Shown here piece by piece: positions 2,636 to 48,937 of a stretch of 64,000 nt of DNA. The notes beneath the pieces are model-generated. The model did not search any database, was not told where the DNA came from, and saw only the letters and a program-made list of their open reading frames with translations. Numbering within the stretch: position 1 is the first letter of the stretch; each line of letters opens with the position of its first letter. Source of the DNA: a phage. A program made the translations under genes and the position numbers. Where the stretch lies: NCBI GenBank assembly GCA_021525805.1, contig GCA_021525805.1_3940.1; one strand, 5' to 3'.

Positions 2636-3085
2636 ATGTGTTATACAGGCGACCCAGCCAATAACCCTCTTGATAGAGTAAGAATCCTCTGCACAGACAC
2701 TAATAATGATGAAATTCTTATTGAGCAGTCTGTGCTAGAGTGGTTCTATCTAGAATCTGGAAAGGATGAAAAGAAAGCAGCCATCAAAGCTCTTAAATAT
2801 TTACTCTTTCAAGTAGCCAAGATGGGAGATGAGAAGGTTGGTGGTGTTTATTTACGTAACTCTTCCAGATTCAAATCTCTGAAAGCTGTTTATGACGACC
2901 TTGTTAAAAGCTCTGTTTCAGGACTACCCTATGCAGGTGGTATTAATCAGTGCGACATTGATATGCGTCGTCAAAATCCTTGCTCTGTCAAGAAATACAC
3001 AGAATATGGTGATGCTGCCAGATACGAAGGCAGAGATTACTGCAACCGTGTTAATGGCGTATTTATTATCAAGCGAGATGAATAA
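2636..3085 (+). CDS. Hypothetical head-tail joining protein
   Basis: ORF with AGGAGGG RBS in structural operon. Confidence 0.3.
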   Translation: MCYTGDPANNPLDRVRILCTDTNNDEILIEQSVLEWFYLESGKDEKKAAIKALKYLLFQVAKMGDEKVGGVYLRNSSRFKSLKAVYDDLVKSSVSGLPYAGGINQCDIDMRRQNPCSVKKYTEYGDAARYEGRDYCNRVNGVFIIKRDE

Positions 3086-3567
3086 TGGTTAAAAGGGTTA
3101 TTCACCCCGCGAGAGCAAAATTAGTCGGGGCTATGAAGAACTTGCAAACGGCTAATGCTCAAGTTGGGTATTTTCAAGAACAAGGTCAACATAGCTCTGG
3201 TTTTTCTTATCCTGCTTTAATGTATTTACAAGAAGTTATTGGGGTTCCTTCAGCTTCTGGTAAAGTATATCGTAGGTTGTTTGAAATCACTATGATGCTA
3301 AACAAACAGGCCTTGTTAGAGCAGACTAAGAAGAATCTATATAAGCAACTTAGCAGTCTCAACACAGACCCTTCAAATACCTTAGAAGCATTTGCAAAGA
3401 ATGCTCAAAAGGCAATTAAAAGGGGTTTTGGTAACTCTGCTATCCTCCCTCCTAACGCACCTTCCACAGTCAAGAAAAAAGGCTTTAACGCACCTCTTGT
3501 TGAGACAGGTGACTTAAGAGATAACCTTGCTTATAAAATTTCTACTAAGAAGGGTATTAAGAAATGA
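3085..3567 (+). CDS. Hypothetical head-tail connector/completion protein
   Basis: Tightly coupled ORF (ATG overlaps previous stop) in structural operon. Confidence 0.3.
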   Translation: MVKRVIHPARAKLVGAMKNLQTANAQVGYFQEQGQHSSGFSYPALMYLQEVIGVPSASGKVYRRLFEITMMLNKQALLEQTKKNLYKQLSSLNTDPSNTLEAFAKNAQKAIKRGFGNSAILPPNAPSTVKKKGFNAPLVETGDLRDNLAYKISTKKGIKK

Positions 3568-3965
3568 GACTCTTAAACAGACACAGCTTTGTAGTAAAGC
3601 GTAAAGTCTCTGAAGACGGTTATTATAATGATGATGGTGATTGGGTAGCTTCACAAGATATTGTAGAGGTTAACTGTAAAGGTAATATCCAGCCATATAT
3701 CAAAGGTTCTGTAAAGAATGGTACACAGATTGCTTTACCGGAAGGTATCAGGCTTACCGATACAAGAATCCTGTATACTACATATAAACTTAGGACTTCA
3801 GATGATGTAGAGTGGAATGAGTCTGATATTGTTATGATTGATGGTCATGAGTATGAAGTATTTATGACTATGGATTGGTCACAGCAATTAGCCCATACGT
3901 CCCATTATGAATATATCATTATTAGAAGGGATAAAATGAATGCAGTTAGAAACAGCAGAACTTGA
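3564..3965 (+). CDS. Hypothetical head-tail connector/completion protein
   Basis: Overlapping start/stop coupling; position between capsid and sheath. Confidence 0.3.
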   Translation: MRLLNRHSFVVKRKVSEDGYYNDDGDWVASQDIVEVNCKGNIQPYIKGSVKNGTQIALPEGIRLTDTRILYTTYKLRTSDDVEWNESDIVMIDGHEYEVFMTMDWSQQLAHTSHYEYIIIRRDKMNAVRNSRT

Positions 3966-42449: not shown

Positions 42450-42707
42450 ATGAAAGACTTAATAGAAAAACATGAGCGGCCTATATACTTGCTCCACAAG
42501 CCTCGGAAAACGATGTACTATGTGAGTAGCACAGATATGATGATAAAACAAAATGATGACTCATGGGTTGCTGGTATCTCTTACATCTCTACAGCAGATG
42601 GTAAAATCTACGCAAGACCTTATGAGATGTTTAACAAAGAAAACTGGGAAGTTTTAGACAGAAAACAAGCCCTAGAAATGATAAAGAAAGGAGAAATCAC
42701 GCTATGA
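42450..42707 (+). CDS. Hypothetical protein
   Basis: ATG at 42450 with GGAGAG upstream; track start 42366 overlaps nrdA. Confidence 0.3.
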   Translation: MKDLIEKHERPIYLLHKPRKTMYYVSSTDMMIKQNDDSWVAGISYISTADGKIYARPYEMFNKENWEVLDRKQALEMIKKGEITL

Positions 42708-43777
42708 TTAACCAGCACCCAATCTTTTTAGGTGGTGAGAGAAAAACTTTTGACTCACTTAATAAACACTACCCAAAAATCTTTGAACTTTATAAACAAC
42801 AAAAAGCACAAGACTGGTCAGAAGATGAGTTCCCTTTTGAACAATCACGTCTTGATTTTGAGAGTGTCCCAGCATCAATGTCAGGTGTAATGCTTGAGAT
42901 TCTTAAGTGGCAATGGGAAGCAGACACTCAAGTTGCTAAGAGCTTGGCATTTGCCTTTGCACCTTTTATCTCTGATGACATCTATGCAACTGCAATTATG
43001 AAGCAGTCTGAGATTGAAAACCTACATGCTCTTACTTACTCAGAGATTGTAAGGCAATGTATTAAAAACCCTGAAACAATCTTAGATGAGATTAACCAGA
43101 ATGTTGCTGTGCAAGACCGATTAAAAACTGTGAATCGTGTTCTTGAAGAATTACTGGATGAAGGTATAAACTATCGTCTGAGTTATGTTCGTGATTCACT
43201 TCTGGACAAAGACCCTTTACACTTCCATAAAGTGATTCTGAAAGGGCTGTTTGCAGTGACTGCACTTGAAGGTATATCTTTTATGGCATCATTTGCATGT
43301 ACTTTTGCACTTGATGCTCAAGATAAATTTCAGGGTATTGCTCAAGCGGTACAGAAAATTATGCTTGACGAAATCCTTCACACTAAAATTGATATTGAAG
43401 TTTTAAAAGAAACTTTAAGAGATGATGAGTGGCAGAAAGCTTTTCAACAAATTCTTCCAGAGATTAAAGTAATCTTAGATGAAGTAGTTGAAAGTGAAGA
43501 GAAATGGTCGTATTATATCTTCTCCGAAGGACGTGCTGTAGTTGGCCTAAATACAAAGCTTCTTCATGAGTGGGTTTACTATAATGCTGCCCCACTGTAT
43601 GATATGTTTGGCATTCCCAGAGATTTTGTAGCTCCTAAAGAACCACCTTTGAAGTACATGATTAAGAAGATGGAAATTGATAAAGAGCAGAATGCTAATC
43701 AGGAGCAACAGAACGGTGCGTACCTGTTGAATACTGTTGTAGATGATTTGAATAGTGGATTTTTAGAGGTTCCTTAA
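42704..43777 (+). CDS. nrdB: Ribonucleotide reductase class Ia small subunit
   Basis: 357 aa, coupled downstream of nrdA; size and position. Confidence 0.7.
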   Translation: MINQHPIFLGGERKTFDSLNKHYPKIFELYKQQKAQDWSEDEFPFEQSRLDFESVPASMSGVMLEILKWQWEADTQVAKSLAFAFAPFISDDIYATAIMKQSEIENLHALTYSEIVRQCIKNPETILDEINQNVAVQDRLKTVNRVLEELLDEGINYRLSYVRDSLLDKDPLHFHKVILKGLFAVTALEGISFMASFACTFALDAQDKFQGIAQAVQKIMLDEILHTKIDIEVLKETLRDDEWQKAFQQILPEIKVILDEVVESEEKWSYYIFSEGRAVVGLNTKLLHEWVYYNAAPLYDMFGIPRDFVAPKEPPLKYMIKKMEIDKEQNANQEQQNGAYLLNTVVDDLNSGFLEVP

Positions 43778-44019
43778 TGACTTATGTAATTTACTCCAAA
43801 ACTGGATGCCCTCAGTGTGATACTGCAAAGAATTTTGCAAAAGCTCGTGGTATTGACCATGTTGTGAGAATGTTAGGGCAGGACTATGAGCTATCAGACC
43901 TGATGGATATTGCACAGATGCCAGTTCGTCAGATGCCATTCATCATGAAAACTGATGGACAAAACCTAAAGCCTGTTGGGACGCTACAGAATTTTATGGC
44001 AGAGGTGAATAATGCTTAA
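43777..44019 (+). CDS. Glutaredoxin/NrdH-like redoxin
   Basis: CPQC active-site motif near N-terminus; 80 aa; coupled to nrdB. Confidence 0.6.
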   Translation: MTYVIYSKTGCPQCDTAKNFAKARGIDHVVRMLGQDYELSDLMDIAQMPVRQMPFIMKTDGQNLKPVGTLQNFMAEVNNA

Positions 44020-44218: not shown

Positions 44219-44225
44219 AATGAAA

Positions 44226-44248
44226 GGGTCTCTTCGGAGACCTTTTTA
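44226..44248 (+). terminator. Rho-independent terminator (UUCG tetraloop)
   Basis: ggtctc-ttcg-gagacc followed by TTTTT. Confidence 0.6.
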
Positions 44249-44266: not shown

Positions 44267-45463
44267 ATGAACAAAGTACAGATTATTAAAAAGAATGGCT
44301 CACTCGAAGAACCTGATATCAAAAAAGTTTTAGCAGCAGTCACAAAGTCAGCTAATAGGGTTGGGTATAAAGAACTTCCACCAGATGTTACCCAAGCTCT
44401 TGAGTCAGCATTTATGAGAATTCTGGTAAAGTCCACTAAGCAGAATAATTTGCTAATTTCTGTAAATGATATTCACAGTATTGTTGAGGGTGCTTTGGCA
44501 GAAGTCAATCACGAGATTTATGAGTCTTACTCAACATATAGAAATTACCGTAAAGAAGTTGCTCAAAATTGGGATGAACTCTACCAGAAGACCAAAGATA
44601 CACTCTTCTTAGGTGACAGAGAGAATGCTAACTTTGACAGCAGTTTAATTTCTACAAAAGGTTCAATTATTCGTGGTTATCTGACTAAAGAAATCTTTAA
44701 ACAGTACCACTTAACACCAGAGGAACTTGAAGCCATTGAAAAAGGGTTTATCTATATCCATGATTTAAGAGACCTAATTTTTGGTGGTATCAACTGTTGC
44801 CTGTTTGACATTGGTAAAGTCCTGAAAGGTGGCTTTGAAATGTCTGGCATTGAATATTGTGAACCGAAGTCTGTACTATCAGCCTTACAGGTTATTGGTG
44901 ACGTAGTTCTTTCAGCAACTGCACAGCAATTTGGTGGCTTTACTTTAGCAGAGATTGATAAGGTACTTGTGCCGTATGCTAAGAAGTCTCTACGCTATCA
45001 TGCTGAGAAAGCAGCATCTTACGGTATTCCTAAAGAACATTACCACAATTATGTCATGGAGCAGCTACAGATTGAACTGACTCAAGGTTTCCAGTCACTT
45101 GAAATGAAACTAAACACTGTACCTTGTAGTCGTGGGGATTTTGCATTTACAACTTTGACATTCGGGTTACTTGACTCAGATATGTCCAATGAAGATAACC
45201 GACTACAATACATGATTGCAAGCACTCTCCTAGATGTTCGTATGAATGGACAAGGTAAGAGCAAGAAACCTGTTGTATTCCCTAAACTGGTTTATATTTA
45301 TGACCAGAAGAGACACGATGAGAATATCTGTCAAGGACACCTGTACAGTAAAGCTATAGAGTGTTGCTCTAAAGCGATGTATCCAGATTTCTTAAGTGTA
45401 TCTGGTCATGGTGCTGTAGCAGAGGCTTTTGAGCGTTCTGGCAAGGTAATTTCGCCGATGGGT
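44267..45463 (+). CDS. nrdD: Anaerobic ribonucleotide reductase, exon 1
   Basis: N-terminal ATP-cone-like segment; exon ends ...ISPMG at GGT (U at -1), then in-frame TAA that begins the intron. Confidence 0.7.
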
Positions 45464-46205
45464 TAACAAACTCTATAGCTCATCTAAAACGTGCCTAAAC
45501 AGGGAAACTCTACAGATGTAGACAATCCTGTGCTAAATGATGTAAGATGTAAGAAACTATATAACATAGGAGTATTACATGCCAAATTATCATGTTACTG
45601 AAGACGGAAGAGTCTTTAGAGAAAATGGTGTAGAGCTTACACAGTGGAAATCCAACACTGGGTATATGAAAGTAAAGTTTTACGGTAAGAAGAATCGTGA
45701 CATGTATGTCCATAGGTTAGTTGCTGAGAAATATGTACCTAACCCAAACAATCTTCCAATTGTAAAACACAAAGATGATAACAAACTGAACAACCATGCT
45801 TCTAACTTAGAATGGGGAACTCATTCTGAGAATGTTAAAGAAGGCTATGAGAATGGTTGCTACAAGTTTTGTAAGCGTTCATATGCTGTGAAGGCCACAC
45901 ACAAAGTGACAAAAGAAGTTATTGCTGCCAAGTCAATACGAGAGTTATCCAATATACTCGGATATAATCGCAAGACTATCTCTTCAATATTGAAGGGTGT
46001 AAAAGAGCATAATAACTTTGAACATGAATTTGAATACATCTAAACGCCGAACGACTAACCGTGATGAATGTAGCGGTGTAGGGTCAAGCGACTCGAAATG
46101 GTACGCTACTTAGAAATAAGTAGAAGATATAGTCTGGACTTACTGGCGACAGTAAGCAGCTTGAATAAAGCGGGGTAAGCTTAGCGAACTTACCTGAACA
46201 ACAAG
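45464..46205 (+). mobile_element. Group I intron in nrdD carrying an HNH endonuclease ORF
   Basis: 742 nt interruption; boundaries GGT|taa... and ...aag|TGT (omega G) restore ISPMG-CRAFL across the junction. Confidence 0.6.
45579..46043 (+). CDS. Intron-encoded HNH homing endonuclease
   Basis: HNH-like segment (HKDDNKLNNHASNLEWGTHSEN); ATG with GGAG RBS inside the intron. Confidence 0.6.
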   Translation: MPNYHVTEDGRVFRENGVELTQWKSNTGYMKVKFYGKKNRDMYVHRLVAEKYVPNPNNLPIVKHKDDNKLNNHASNLEWGTHSENVKEGYENGCYKFCKRSYAVKATHKVTKEVIAAKSIRELSNILGYNRKTISSILKGVKEHNNFEHEFEYI

Positions 46206-47153
46206 TGTAGAGCATTTTTATCACCATACCATAACGAATATGGTGAAGAGTTTTATGTCGGTCGTGCTAACATTGGTGCTGTATCTTTGAACTTACCAAT
46301 GATTTACCAGTATTCTAAAGAGAATGGTTTAGATTTCTGGAAAGAGCTTGATAAGTACCTAGAGATGATTCGCAGCTTCCACAAGAAACGTTACGAAATG
46401 ATTGCTAATATGCCAGCAAGTTCTAACCCTCTTGCATTCACACAAGGTGGTCTGTACAAAGGGAATAAGAAACCTACTGACAAGGTTGGCTGGGATATCG
46501 TGAAGTCCTTCACAGCTTCTTTTGGGGTTACTGCGCTTGATGAGCTATCTGTTCTTGCTGAAGGTAAACGACTTCATGAAGTTGGAAGCTGTAGTTTTGC
46601 ATATGATGTTCTGGAATATATCAACATGAAGACTGAAGAGTTTAAAAATGAAGACGGTTTCTTATATGCAGTCTATGGCACTCCAGCAGAATCACTTTGT
46701 GGAACTCAGCTAAAACAGTTCAGAGATATGTTTGGCGTTATCAAAGGTGTTTCTGATAAGGAATACTTTACAAACAGCTTCCATATGAATGTTGCAGCAG
46801 ACATTACACCATTTGAGAAGCAGGACTTAGAAGAACCCTTCTTCCATATCTGTAGAGGTGGTAGAATCCAGTATGTAAGAGTAGCTAACCCAGAAAACTT
46901 ATCAGCACTTAAAAGTTGTATTACAAGAGGGATGTTGAAAGGTTTTTATCAGGGACTTAACTTTGACTTAGCAATCTGTGAACATTGTGGTAACAGACCA
47001 AAGGCTGATGTTGAAGAATGTGAGGTTTGTCATTCACACGATATCTCTGTGATTAACAGGGTGTGCGGGTACTTGTCATTCACAAAAATTAAAGGTCAGT
47101 CTCGAATGAATGACGCAAAAATCGCTGAGATTCGTGACAGGATTTCTATGTAA
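46206..47153 (+). CDS. nrdD: Anaerobic ribonucleotide reductase, exon 2
   Basis: Begins CRAFLSPYHNEYGEEFYVGRANIGAVSLNLP; C-terminal glycyl-radical motif RVCGYLSF. Confidence 0.65.
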   Translation, partial: CRAFLSPYHNEYGEEFYVGRANIGAVSLNLPMIYQYSKENGLDFWKELDKYLEMIRSFHKKRYEMIANMPASSNPLAFTQGGLYKGNKKPTDKVGWDIVKSFTASFGVTALDELSVLAEGKRLHEVGSCSFAYDVLEYINMKTEEFKNEDGFLYAVYGTPAESLCGTQLKQFRDMFGVIKGVSDKEYFTNSFHMNVAADITPFEKQDLEEPFFHICRGGRIQYVRVANPENLSALKSCITRGMLKGFYQGLNFDLAICEHCGNRPKADVEECEVCHSHDISVINRVCGYLSFTKIKGQSRMNDAKIAEIRDRISM

Positions 47154-47164
47154 AACTTGACAAG

Positions 47165-47551
47165 GTGGTGTGGGTCTTGATAGGCTTACATCACCTTTTT
47201 ATTTGGAGTTACATTATGGACTTGTGGCTTTATGTAGCAGTTTGTGGGATTGTATGTCTGATAATCTTATTTATTCTTGGGATAATGCGATTTAGAGACA
47301 TCATACAGTCAGATTTTTTGCCTGAGTTTGCCATGATAGTTGGAGTTATTGCACTTTGTGTCTTGGCGGTGTTCTATTCATACAAGACTGTGATATGGAT
47401 GAAGGCAAACAATTGTGTAAAAACTCATCAACATCGTGAGGTTACTTATTTTGTGAGTGTACTTAGTGGGAATACCACTGTACTTGTCCCACAAACTTCT
47501 GTAGAGTATCTTTACACATGTGATAATGGTAAAACTATATGGTGGAATTAA
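47165..47551 (+). CDS. Membrane protein
   Basis: Two hydrophobic helices; real start may be ATG at 47216. Confidence 0.3.
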   Translation: MVWVLIGLHHLFIWSYIMDLWLYVAVCGIVCLIILFILGIMRFRDIIQSDFLPEFAMIVGVIALCVLAVFYSYKTVIWMKANNCVKTHQHREVTYFVSVLSGNTTVLVPQTSVEYLYTCDNGKTIWWN

Positions 47552-48451: not shown

Positions 48452-48937
48452 ATGAATTACATGGAGATTAGACCATTTGACACAGCTAATGGTGAAGGGG
48501 TTCGTGTAAGCCTCTTCGTAGCTGGTTGTAAGCATCACTGTGAAGGCTGCTTTAACAGGGAGTCTTGGAAGTTTAATGCTGGTAAAGAGTTTACTTATGC
48601 AAACCTCTACGGAATCATCCAACTAATGGGTGATAATGCTGTCAGTGGTTTGTCAATACTTGGTGGAGAACCTCTGGATGATAGAAATATTCAAGAGGTT
48701 ACCAATATATGTAAACGTATTAAAACTGTTTACCCAGAGAAGTCTATCTGGCTCTGGACAGGTTTTCAGTTACACGAAAAGATTCACTTAGATGTGATGA
48801 AATATGTTGACGTGGTGATTGATGGTAAGTATGATTCATCTAAACCAACAGTTAAACCGTATCGTGGTTCTGATAACCAAAACCTCTGGAGAAAAGAGTA
48901 TGGGTGGCAAGGTGATTGTCAGTGGAGAGCCGAGTAA
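48452..48937 (+). CDS. nrdG: Anaerobic RNR activating protein (radical SAM)
   Basis: CKHHCEGC cysteine cluster near N-terminus; ~160 aa; near nrdD. Confidence 0.7.
   Translation: MNYMEIRPFDTANGEGVRVSLFVAGCKHHCEGCFNRESWKFNAGKEFTYANLYGIIQLMGDNAVSGLSILGGEPLDDRNIQEVTNICKRIKTVYPEKSIWLWTGFQLHEKIHLDVMKYVDVVIDGKYDSSKPTVKPYRGSDNQNLWRKEYGWQGDCQWRAE

Follow-up and report, generated by a model that had tools for sequence, protein, structure and literature searches.

A putative self-splicing and mobile group I intron of the T-even-phage type at the Cys-loop cysteine codon of nrdD in a Felix O1-like phage

We analyzed a 64,000-nt stretch of phage DNA (GenBank assembly GCA_021525805.1, contig GCA_021525805.1_3940.1), hereafter called the window, which derives from a Felix O1-like phage (Felixounavirus). 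Its nrdD gene, whose product is the enzyme of anaerobic DNA-precursor synthesis (anaerobic ribonucleotide reductase), is split in two (Table 1). The exon 1 reading frame (44267-45466) runs through ATT TCG CCG ATG GGT (ISPMG) up to 45463 and meets an in-frame TAA at 45464-45466. Exon 2 opens at 46206 with TGT AGA GCA TTT TTA TCA CCA (CRAFLSP). A preliminary description of this DNA had noted the ISPMG end and its TAA, the 742-nt gap, the G that closes it and the resumption at CRAFL, and each lies exactly where it was placed. Upstream of nrdD is nrdB (42704-43777), and downstream is nrdG (48452-48937), named after its counterpart in the gene table of UAB_Phi87 (PMC4837284).

Table 1. Coordinates of the split nrdD gene, the intron and its structural elements in the window.
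Feature	Position	Strand	Details
nrdD exon 1	44267-45463	+	399 codons; ATP-cone and N-terminal half of NrdD; last codons ATG GGT
P1 5' strand	45457-45463	+	exon GAUGGGU pairs with GCUCAUC 45478-45484; U45463.G45478 is the G.U wobble at the 5' splice site
Group I (IA2-type) intron	45464-46205	+	742 nt; precise insert by comparison with nrdD of Felix O1; partial matches to Rfam RF00028; structure and covariation
Internal guide	45473-45484	+	CUAUA 45473-45477 (P10) and GCUCAUC 45478-45484 (P1 3' strand)
5' core	45490-45544	+	P3 5' strand 45490-45495; P4 45499-45503/45527-45531; P5 hairpin 45509-45522; P6 45532-45533; P6a 5' strand 45539-45544
Shine-Dalgarno-like AGGAG	45568-45572	+	6 nt ahead of the ORF's ATG; RBS annotated in phage Meda
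HNH homing endonuclease ORF	45579-46043	+	154 aa; located within the P6a loop, its 3' end shared with the P6a 3' strand
3' core, first part	from 46035	+	P6a' 46035-46040; P6' 46046-46047; P7 46053-46057/46130-46134; P7.1 46058-46077; P7.2 46081-46094
3' core, second part	to 46194	+	P3' 46100-46105; P8 46106-46123; P9 46139-46156 (GCGA loop); P9.1 46159-46171; P9.2 46174-46194
Terminal guanosine (omega-G) of the intron	46205	+	read from the sequence
nrdD exon 2	46206-47153	+	315 codons and stop; holds the glycyl-radical domain; first codon TGT is the Cys-loop cysteine
Intron-linked exon 2 tract	46206-46259	+	seven silent third-position sites: +3, +9, +18, +33, +39, +48, +54

The two pieces had been read as one interrupted gene, and alignment of the joined protein bears this out: they are collinear halves of one NrdD, not separate genes. 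Exon 1 matches positions 1-250 of the Pfam NRDD profile (E 1e-41) in addition to ATP-cone, and exon 2 matches positions 264-560 (E 3e-64) in addition to Gly_radical. Joined, they give a protein of 714 aa in which SPMG|CRAFLS aligns without a gap to the solved NrdD structures 9d3x and T4 1h78, both of which read PMGCRSFL. With an ATP-cone, an NRDD barrel bearing the Cys-loop cysteine and a C-terminal glycyl-radical domain in one collinear protein, the product has the composition of a class III ribonucleotide reductase. By residue counting in the 1h78 alignment, the cysteine at the junction corresponds to C290 of T4 NrdD, the catalytic Cys-loop cysteine; a literature search did not find a direct citation for Cys290. 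Judged by these alignments, the intron adjoins the Cys-loop cysteine codon on its 5' side.

Felix O1 and four other Felixounavirus genomes carry an uninterrupted nrdD of 2145 nt each, the length of the spliced window gene. At the junction all five read ...CCGATGGGT|TGCAGAGC..., i.e. ...ATGGGT|TGC..., and the boundaries drawn in the preliminary description match this junction exactly. A T occurs on both flanks, so at the DNA level the insertion could be shifted 1 nt rightward. We chose 45464-46205 because it is the only option that places a U before the 5' splice site and a G at the last intron position, and it alone fits the intron-less junction and the 3'-terminal G together.

A group I core flanks the ORF within the insert. 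The Rfam model Intron_gpI (RF00028) matches on either side of the ORF (35.3 bits, E 4e-7, and 17.5 bits), aligning 45499-45596 to the model's P4-P6 and 46100-46156 to its P8/P7'/P9. No match anywhere in the window reaches the 50-bit gathering threshold of RF00028, the best being 35.3 bits, and this threshold marks a detection limit rather than a structural feature. The low score likely arises because the 465-nt ORF in P6a splits the core and because the model expects a P2. An Rfam scan of the whole window ranked by E-value recovered this intron alone, with no second intron at that sensitivity; a snoRNA-like match inside the ORF (snoR104, E 0.24) was dismissed as chance.

The helices occur in the canonical order P3-P4-P5-P6-P6a-(ORF)-P7-P7.1-P7.2-P3'-P8-P7'-P9, with P7 forming a pseudoknot with P3. 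The 3' core contains the S element AAGAUAUAGUC, and a Q-like element, CAAUCCUGUGC, is also present. P2 is absent, and a 5-nt joiner, UAAAA, connects the guide to P3. Unconstrained minimum free energy folding of the ORF-trimmed core recovered 10 of the 13 helices that we had assigned by hand, and a natural ORF-less allele, that of phage EC6, folds at -93 kcal/mol (z = -3.7). Two additional hairpins, P7.1 and P7.2, separate P7 from P3'; these, together with BLAST similarity to the T4 td intron and the T4-type nrdD intron, place the element in subgroup IA2.

Both splice sites have the pairings expected of such an intron. The U that ends exon 1 forms a G.U pair with the internal guide and the intron ends in G, in agreement with the guide pairing that the preliminary description had envisaged at the 5' splice site. 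P1 is retained through compensatory changes in phages A140, phiA047 and JB75. On the 3' side, CUAUA of the guide is complementary to UGUAG at the start of exon 2 (46206-46210), forming P10; intron-less alleles begin exon 2 with UGC, which would cost one P10 pair.

Covariation lends this structure further weight. We aligned a small set of seven related intron cores with MAFFT, two of them near-identical, after swapping the ORF loops for an artificial GAAA; the T4 td row has a P2, which MAFFT aligned poorly to P1. The RNAalifold consensus of these seven cores includes P1, P3, P4, P5, P6, P6a, P7.1, P7.2, P8 and P9, and 29 of its 57 pairs show compensatory change. Once the P7 pseudoknot was added, 98.0% of pair cells were paired, against 33–42% in slid controls; double-changed pairs numbered 29 against 1–6, and none of 500 shuffles reached the observed values. 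Both P7.1 and P7.2 covary, while P7 and P6 are invariant across the set, where covariation is uninformative. These results support the preliminary reading: by sequence comparison, the interruption is a group I intron and falls in the IA2 subgroup together with the T4 introns.

The ORF within the intron had been called free-standing. It is instead embedded in the ribozyme, within the loop of P6a, whose 3' strand is made up of the terminal ORF codons TAC ATC TAA. Its identification as an HNH endonuclease stands. The ORF product is homologous over its full length to I-HmuI: residues 3-145 align with that enzyme (PDB 1U3E) at E 1e-9, and the catalytic residues coincide (H of KHKDD, N of NNH..N and N of HSEN). 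Pfam HNH_3 scores 40.2 bits (cut-off 24.8) and PHROG 59, an HNH endonuclease family, matches at E 9e-44. For a candidate C-terminal DNA-binding module the matches are weaker, to NUMOD1 (16.9 bits, cut-off 22.8) and to the helix-turn-helix family PHROG 3855 (E 1e-3), although the alignment to I-HmuI runs on to residue 145. The protein is 100% identical to that of phage JohannRWettstein, and full-length homologs occupy introns at the same site in phages A140 (47% identity) and F97 (39%). By homology, the ORF product is an I-HmuI-like HNH homing endonuclease that would be expected to nick its target.

In T4 introns, the ribosome-binding site and start codon of the endonuclease are sequestered in a hairpin. 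A putative hairpin over these elements in the window folds no better than shuffled sequence (z = -0.4), and the equivalent hairpins of A140 and F97 are significant (z of about -3). A sigma-70 promoter scan found sites to be rarer than in shuffles and nothing usable.

The same 742-nt insert occurs at the identical nrdD position in UAB_Phi87, Mushroom, Meda, JohannRWettstein, LinBro and other relatives at 94–99% identity, and about 59% of sampled relatives lack it. Relatives thus comprise empty sites, full elements and elements that have lost the ORF with the ribozyme intact. The ORF deletions in EC6 (316-nt intron) and RPN213 (292 nt) are different, and both fall wholly within the P6a loop. Substitutions among the cores of four close alleles affect 12 sites: 10 are unpaired, the remaining 2 stay paired as G.U, and every helix is left unbroken. 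The confinement of the deletions to P6a and the sparing of helices argue for selection on the intron RNA.

These alleles also bear on whether the element still works. One could suppose that the intron is real by descent but splices inefficiently, leaving nrdD effectively a pseudogene while aerobic NrdAB suffices, a view compatible with the sub-threshold Rfam score, the nrdB gene upstream and the frequency of intron-less relatives. We consider this very unlikely. All six intron-plus alleles examined (window, EC6, RPN213, JohannRWettstein, Meda and LinBro) retain both exons as open, collinear frames of full length, and the cores contain no helix-breaking substitution. The element retains P1, P10, the G.U wobble and omega-G, together with an intact HNH ORF, whose catalytic H and N residues align with those of I-HmuI.

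Another view would dispense with RNA splicing: a homing endonuclease gene has split nrdD into two separately translated polypeptides that reassemble. Most GenBank records do list two separate nrdD coding sequences and an HNH gene, Bardina et al. describe only a split gene with an interrupting homing endonuclease (PMC4837284), and Aeromonas phage Aeh1, where mobE splits nrdA, offers a precedent (PMC3653736). Exon 2, however, has neither a start codon nor a ribosome-binding site at the junction. Its first in-frame start, TTG at 46287, lacks a Shine-Dalgarno sequence and would cost 27 residues, including the Cys-loop cysteine aligned to T4 C290. Moreover, the ORF is flanked by roughly 277 nt of non-coding sequence that folds as a covarying group I core, and a functionless RNA would leave the intact core of ORF-deleted alleles unexplained. 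We judge separate translation to be highly improbable. The chance that the insert is an intein or a group II intron is negligible: ribonucleotide reductase active sites are also intein targets (PMC3653736), but a TAA directly follows exon 1, the exons are not fused through an open frame in the insert, Pfam detects only HNH_3 and NUMOD1 with neither a Hint nor a reverse transcriptase domain, and group I is the sole significant Rfam match in the window, so that the sequence refutes both.

According to reviews, intron-encoded HNH enzymes nick their targets, homing co-converts flanking exon sequence, and active-site codons are preferred sites (PMC2988022, PMC3984707). Exon 2 carries a candidate trace of homing. 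In a comparison of ten alleles, seven silent sites at its start are fixed between intron-plus and intron-minus alleles, with none upstream. Within the first 60 nt of exon 2, intron-less alleles depart from the window at 12–14 positions, compared with 0–7 in each of the other 60-nt bins. LinBro is a mosaic in which the nrdD background (-300 to -61) is 75% identical to the window, with an intron core at 97–99% and an exon 2 start at 98%. This exon 2 tract is presumed to be a co-conversion tract, the target region of the endonuclease, or both; selection for P10 pairing or for immunity of the target site could account for part of the cluster.

Together, these observations make it very probable that the insert at 45464-46205, which interrupts a Felix O1-like nrdD on the 5' side of the catalytic Cys-loop cysteine codon, is a self-splicing and mobile group I intron of the IA2 type known from T-even phages. 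From its structure and established group I chemistry, we infer the following course of splicing. In the pre-mRNA, P1 would form between the guide segment GCUCAUC and GAUGGGU at the end of exon 1, setting the G.U wobble at U45463, and an exogenous guanosine held in P7 would attack after this U. CUAUA would then bind UGUAG at the start of exon 2 as P10, G46205 would take the place of the cofactor, and the exons would be ligated as GGU|UGU, with the predicted junction ...CCGAUGGGU|UGUAGAGC. Ligation would restore a single NrdD of 714 codons, and on unspliced RNA the TAA at 45464 would halt ribosomes. Mobility would depend on the HNH endonuclease. In a mixed infection, an nrdD without the intron would be nicked or cut by this enzyme close to the insertion site, with the side of exon 2 as the most likely place. 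Recombinational repair, with the intron-plus genome as template, would then bring in the intron together with neighbouring exon 2 sequence, a case of homing with co-conversion.

Related systems are known in phage T4. The T4 nrdD (sunY) intron, which encodes I-TevII, shares with the window intron its host gene, an IA2 architecture without P2 and an identical P7.1 hairpin, and the two cores are 73.5% identical. The guide is near-identical (GCUCAUG in the T4-type nrdD intron, GCUCAUC in the window), and the GCUCAUG-UAAAA-P3 layout of the T4-type intron (L004) matches that of the window. The sites differ, however: the T4-type intron lies at window residues 280/281 (QAYE|Y), and the window intron 119 codons downstream at 399/400. 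The endonucleases differ too, I-TevII being a GIY-YIG enzyme (PMC2988022) encoded after P9, in contrast to the HNH enzyme in P6a. Different sites and endonuclease families rule out orthology with the T4 nrdD intron and I-TevII.

The T4 td intron, which encodes I-TevI, has an IA2 core with P7.1 and P7.2 and is about 71% identical by BLAST over about 160 nt of the 3' core (intron positions 578-737). Its endonuclease ORF likewise sits in the P6a loop and extends at its 3' end into the P6a 3' strand; in the td sequence (L006), the CDS (774-1511) falls between P6a strands at 727 and 1494. Unlike the window intron, it interrupts a thymidylate synthase gene, retains P2 and encodes a GIY-YIG endonuclease. 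The DNA polymerase intron of Bacillus phage SPO1 offers the homologous endonuclease, I-HmuI, again in a phage group I intron within an essential DNA-metabolism gene. Host gene and phage lineage differ there, and nicking, shown for I-HmuI (PMC2988022), would be an extrapolation for the window enzyme.

Introns at the same Gly/Cys codon site occur in nrdD of Vequintavirus A140 (ATGGGT|TGT) and Vibrio phage F97 (ATGGGT|TGC). Their IA2 cores are 72–74% identical to that of the window, and they carry homologous HNH ORFs in P6a (39–47%). They belong to other phage families, and their helices diverge in sequence with compensation; in F97, nrdD is interrupted a second time farther upstream, again by an HNH-containing element. 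Aeh1 nrdA resembles the window locus in that a homing endonuclease gene of the HNH type, mobE, interrupts a ribonucleotide reductase gene (PMC3653736). In Aeh1 there is no intron, and two polypeptides are made, whereas in the window the ORF is enclosed by a complete ribozyme and exon 2 has no start of its own.

A common history for the two nrdD sites is possible, although we advance it only tentatively and think it somewhat doubtful. A single IA2 lineage with the guide GCUCAU(C/G) may have reached both sites by ectopic transposition to a position that matches its guide, as by reverse splicing, and independently captured endonucleases adapted to each site; the intron with its HNH gene may then have spread by homing at the catalytic-cysteine codon across three phage groups that are not related, Felixounavirus, Vequintavirus and a Vibrio phage. 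At the two sites, the upstream exon ends in sequences that differ by a single base (...UAUGAGU| in T4, ...GAUGGGU| in the window).

The intron is already known, since the JohannRWettstein and Meda records annotate the locus as a two-piece joined nrdD CDS. Our literature search for this intron found no experimental evidence of splicing or cleavage and no description of its RNA structure, only mention of a "split nrdD interrupted by a homing endonuclease". Its main importance is for correct annotation: in most deposited genomes of Felix O1-like phages, the locus is recorded as two truncated NrdD proteins and an HNH gene, and after splicing it would encode one enzyme of 714 aa. The element is real but ordinary, and it leaves the current view of group I introns unchanged. 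Its locus is a compact natural series for studying the life cycle of a homing endonuclease in close, easily grown biocontrol phages, offering empty and full sites, two independent elements with the ORF deleted and the ribozyme intact, and a one-sided exon conversion tract. It also gives phage nrdD another intron site, distinct from that of T4 and located exactly at the catalytic cysteine codon, illustrating how mobile introns target the most conserved codons.

The nrdD gene of this Felix O1-like myovirus is split by a 742-nucleotide (nt) group I intron carrying an HNH endonuclease gene, a reading supported by intron-less alleles, covariation in the group I core, and homology to the endonuclease I-HmuI. 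Along its entire length, the 2887-nt nrdD region shares 95–96.5% identity with dozens of Felixounavirus genomes, including pSJ21, Mushroom, and UAB_Phi87. A preliminary description from the sequence alone placed the insertion between Gly and Cys codons, and its coordinates are exact. The upstream open reading frame (ORF; 44267–45466) closes ...ATT TCG CCG ATG GGT TAA, the 154-codon HNH ORF lies at 45579–46043 with AGGAG upstream at 45568–45572, and after a G at 46205 the frame resumes with TGT AGA GCA TTT TTA TCA CCA. In Pfam, the upstream ORF matches the ATP-cone and positions 1–250 of the NRDD profile, and the frame opening at 46206 matches NRDD positions 264–560 and the glycyl-radical domain. 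The joined 714-residue protein aligns with solved NrdD structures, gap-free over SPMG|CRAFLS (9d3x, E 3e-77; T4 1h78, E 7e-75); both read PMGCRSFL at the junction. Residue counting in the 1h78 alignment pairs the opening codon of exon 2 with T4 NrdD Cys290, which we take to be the "Cys loop" cysteine that bears the thiyl radical. A general role for this loop in glycyl radical enzymes has been described (PMC13450708).

Terminator-like hairpins bracket nrdD. The 5' hairpin (44225–44245; GGGTCTCTTCGGAGACC plus a T-run) was called on the minus strand, with Ts also following the palindrome on the plus strand, and is annotated as a terminator in phage Meda. The 3' hairpin (47162–47197) has a 16-bp stem followed by a T-run.

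Parts of this arrangement have been recorded before. In the account of Bardina et al. (2016), nrdD of UAB_Phi87 is a split gene with a putative homing endonuclease inside, and other Felix O1-like phages share this organization (PMC4837284); the GenBank records of Meda and JohannRWettstein give nrdD as a CDS joined from two pieces, between which lies the HNH gene. As an annotation the element is thus known already, and the BASEL paper states that intron boundaries were annotated by comparative genomics (PMC8594841). Our literature search found no paper giving RNA structure, subgroup, Cys-codon position, or splicing or homing tests for the nrdD intron, which is unexceptional within a thoroughly studied class.

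Comparison with intron-less alleles fixes the boundaries. A 600-nt query across the joined exons, taking 300 nt from the end of exon 1 and 300 nt from the start of exon 2, hit 239 phage records; from the complete matches, 58 were sampled at even spacing to count insert classes. No insert interrupted the alignment in 34 of the 58, Felix O1 among them; 15 had an insert of ~742 nt and nine one of ~316 or ~292 nt. The Felix O1 junction reads ...CCGATGGGT|TGCAGAGC..., where the window has ...CCGATGGGT[742 nt]TGTAGAGC..., and spliced window nrdD and five intron-less nrdD genes are all exactly 2145 nt long. At the DNA level the insert could shift one base to the right; we chose 45464–46205, the only placement in which the 5' splice site follows a U and the intron closes with a G, as group I chemistry demands.

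The intron has the helices of a group I ribozyme. No Rfam match in the whole window reaches the 50-bit gathering score, and two Intron_gpI matches fall below it, at 45499–45596 (P4–P6, 17.5 bits) and 45976–46156 (35.3 bits, E 4e-7), the latter with high posterior probability for its P8, J8/7, P7', and P9 portion. With helix assignment guided by T4 introns, an unconstrained minimum free energy (MFE) fold of the ORF-trimmed core recovered 10 of 13 assigned helices; its pseudoknot with P3 puts P7 beyond the reach of such a fold. Phage EC6 has a natural ORF-less allele of 316 nt, which adopts the same helices (−93 kcal/mol, z = −3.7).

Assigned elements of the nrdD intron and genes around nrdD, in window coordinates (gene names from the ORF list and the UAB_Phi87 gene table)
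Feature	Position	Remark
P1	exon GAUGGGU 45457–45463 / guide GCUCAUC 45478–45484	
P10	CUAUA 45473–45477 / exon 2 UGUAG 46206–46210	
P2		absent; UAAAA 5-nt joiner to P3
P3	45490–45495 / 46100–46105	
P4, P5, P6	inside 45499–45533	P6 3' strand 46046–46047
P6a	45539–45544 / 46035–46040	loop holds ORF
P7	46053–46057 / 46130–46134	pseudoknot with P3
P7.1 hairpin	46058–46077	
P7.2 hairpin	46081–46094	
P8	46106–46112 / 46117–46123	
P9	46139–46145 / 46150–46156	GCGA tetraloop
P9.1 hairpin	46159–46171	
P9.2 hairpin	46174–46194	
omega-G	46205	
nrdB, 357 aa	within 42704–44019	RNR cluster around nrdD
glutaredoxin-like ORF, 80 aa	within 42704–44019	directly 3' of nrdB
nrdG activase, 161 aa	48452–48937	~1.3 kb past nrdD

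Related introns preserve these helices through sequence change. A BLAST search with the intron turned up related cores in T4 td, the T4-type nrdD intron of phage JB75, a Vequintavirus record labeled Campylobacter phage A140, Vibrio phage F97, Aeromonas phage phiA047, and phiKZ-like Pseudomonas phages. A check by code found that all listed helix strands pair in six of six introns, mostly with differing sequences; P3, for example, is CGUGCC/GGUACG in the window, CCGGUC/GGCCGG in JB75, UCUAUC/GAUAGA in td, UCCGUC/GGCGGA in phiA047, and CAUCCU/GGGAUG in F97. Independently of the hand assignments, RNAalifold on a MAFFT alignment of seven ORF-trimmed cores gave a consensus containing P1, P3, P4, P5, P6, P6a, P7.1, P7.2, P8, and P9, with compensatory changes in 29 of 57 pairs. 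For controls, RNAalifold's small hairpin over the S element was swapped for the P7 pseudoknot. Standard pairs then filled 98.0% of cells versus 33–42% with partners slid by 1–3 columns, double-changed pairs numbered 29 versus 1–6, and none of 500 shuffles reached the observed value on any measure. P6 and P7 are uninformative here because they are invariant in the seven cores. Twelve distinct core sites vary among four close Felixounavirus intron alleles, ten of them unpaired and two in P9.2 retaining G·U; none of the 12 carries a helix-breaking substitution. A decayed intron that no longer splices is accordingly very improbable, and an intein or a group II intron is no likelier.

Two of these relatives lie among CDSs annotated as hypothetical proteins. 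In phiA047 (record L008, OM033136.1), an unannotated, related 264-nt ORF-less group I intron at 1922–2185 separates two "hypothetical protein" CDSs; joined at ...CAATTGATGGCT|GAAGAAGTT..., they form a single 731-aa ORF in which Pfam TMP_3 (tape measure protein, E 3.5e-21) spans the junction. The phiKZ-like Pseudomonas phage PhiPizzaParty (record L009) has two tandem IA2-like intron 3' cores (~1840–2160 and ~2380–2760) within 700 nt, with an S element AGATATAGTC, P7.2, and a P9 identical to that of T4 td. Only short hypothetical proteins are annotated there, on both strands; these are probably mis-called ORFs over introns.

Several lines of evidence identify the intron ORF as an HNH endonuclease gene. 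Its Pfam HNH_3 score exceeds the cut-off, NUMOD1 matches it weakly, and it falls in PHROG 59 "HNH endonuclease"; the window contains no other paralog at E < 0.01. Residues 3–145 align to I-HmuI (1U3E, E 1e-9) with catalytic His and Asn residues conserved. I-HmuI is an HNH endonuclease encoded within an intron of Bacillus phage SPO1; like I-HmuII, it is reported to nick one strand (PMC2988022). The ORF's last codons, TAC ATC TAA, form the 3' strand of P6a, an arrangement shared by T4 td, where the I-TevI CDS (774–1511) lies between P6a strands at 727 and 1494 (record L006). The HNH protein (45579–46040) is 100% identical to that of JohannRWettstein while the 2887-nt nrdD region (exons plus intron) is only 95.8% identical, a pattern consistent with recent exchange of the element.

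Natural ORF deletions bear on whether splicing occurs at all. EC6 keeps a 12-codon remnant, ATGCCAAAT...AACTTCGAATATGAGTTTGAATACATCTAA, and RPN213 carries a different deletion that also removes the ribosome-binding site and start. Both deletions lie wholly within the P6a loop and leave the ribozyme 96–97% identical. Loss of the ORF with retention of the ribozyme is expected if nrdD function needs splicing, and argues against a split gene with no need for the RNA. That alternative, although it fits the split-gene description, is highly unlikely.

The window intron resembles the T4 nrdD (sunY) intron in its near-identical guide sequence, identical P7.1, lack of P2, and 73.5% core identity. However, the T4 intron lies 119 codons upstream, interrupting the protein at window residues 280/281, and encodes after P9 a GIY-YIG enzyme, I-TevII (PMC2988022). 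We therefore rejected identity with the T4 element, since insertion site and endonuclease family both differ. The A140 and F97 introns, in contrast, occupy the same Gly/Cys site (ATGGGT|TGT and ATGGGT|TGC) and hold full-length homologs of the window HNH ORF in P6a (47% and 39% identity). By sequence comparison, the intron–HNH composite at the NrdD catalytic-cysteine site is present in at least three phage lineages, which suggests an old unit specialized for that site.

These records have further features. F97 nrdD (record L005, OZ195764.1, 1–3700) has at least three exons and two HNH-endonuclease-containing interruptions, the second at the Gly|Cys site, and its last part is annotated as two abutting CDSs (2644–3303 and 3304–3684). 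The HNH Shine-Dalgarno region lies in a significantly stable hairpin (z about −3) in A140 (record L007, 1468–1545) and F97 (record L005, 1952–2040), reminiscent of translational control of T4 intron endonucleases; the window's equivalent has no significant stability (z = −0.4). "Campylobacter phage A140" (MG065674.1, UNVERIFIED), "Campylobacter phage A132" (MG065664.1), and "Staphylococcus phage SA1" (GU169904.1) carry Vequintavirus or Felixounavirus nrdD sequence 94–97% identical to enterobacterial phages, and their host labels or assemblies look unreliable.

Flanking exons retain a possible trace of homing. We counted mismatches to the window in 60-nt bins across five intron-plus and five intron-minus nrdD alleles, numbering positions from the insertion site (positive in exon 2). 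Within the first 60-nt bin of exon 2, intron-less alleles have 12–14 mismatches versus 2–4 in intron-plus alleles; all other bins have 0–7 for intron-less alleles and 0–9 overall. Seven sites separate the classes perfectly (+3, +9, +18, +33, +39, +48, and +54), all third codon positions, and none lies in exon 1. Phage LinBro combines a diverged nrdD background with a near-identical element: its identity to the window is 75% in exon 1 (−300 to −61), 96.5–98.8% in the intron core, and 98.3% over the first 60 nt of exon 2. We read both patterns as a putative co-conversion tract traveling with the intron, co-conversion being a documented general feature of homing (PMC2988022; PMC3984707). The HNH endonuclease most likely binds and cuts on the exon 2 side, where the tract sits, and the silent differences may in addition shield DNA with the intron from being cut again; the one at +3 (TGC to TGT) further completes P10. 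We are somewhat less sure that the HNH still acts in homing today than that the intron reading is right. The intron-less phages VpaE1 (record L014, 2178–2400) and humlepung (record L015, 2105–2400) have a free-standing gene adjoining the nrdD 3' end, annotated "MobE-like HNH homing endonuclease" and "putative homing endonuclease", respectively; their locus holds a mobile element distinct from the intron.

The nrdD locus offers a neat textbook example, and its annotation is usefully corrected. One evolutionary angle is mildly interesting: a single intron lineage occupies two guide-matching sites in nrdD and carries two endonuclease families.
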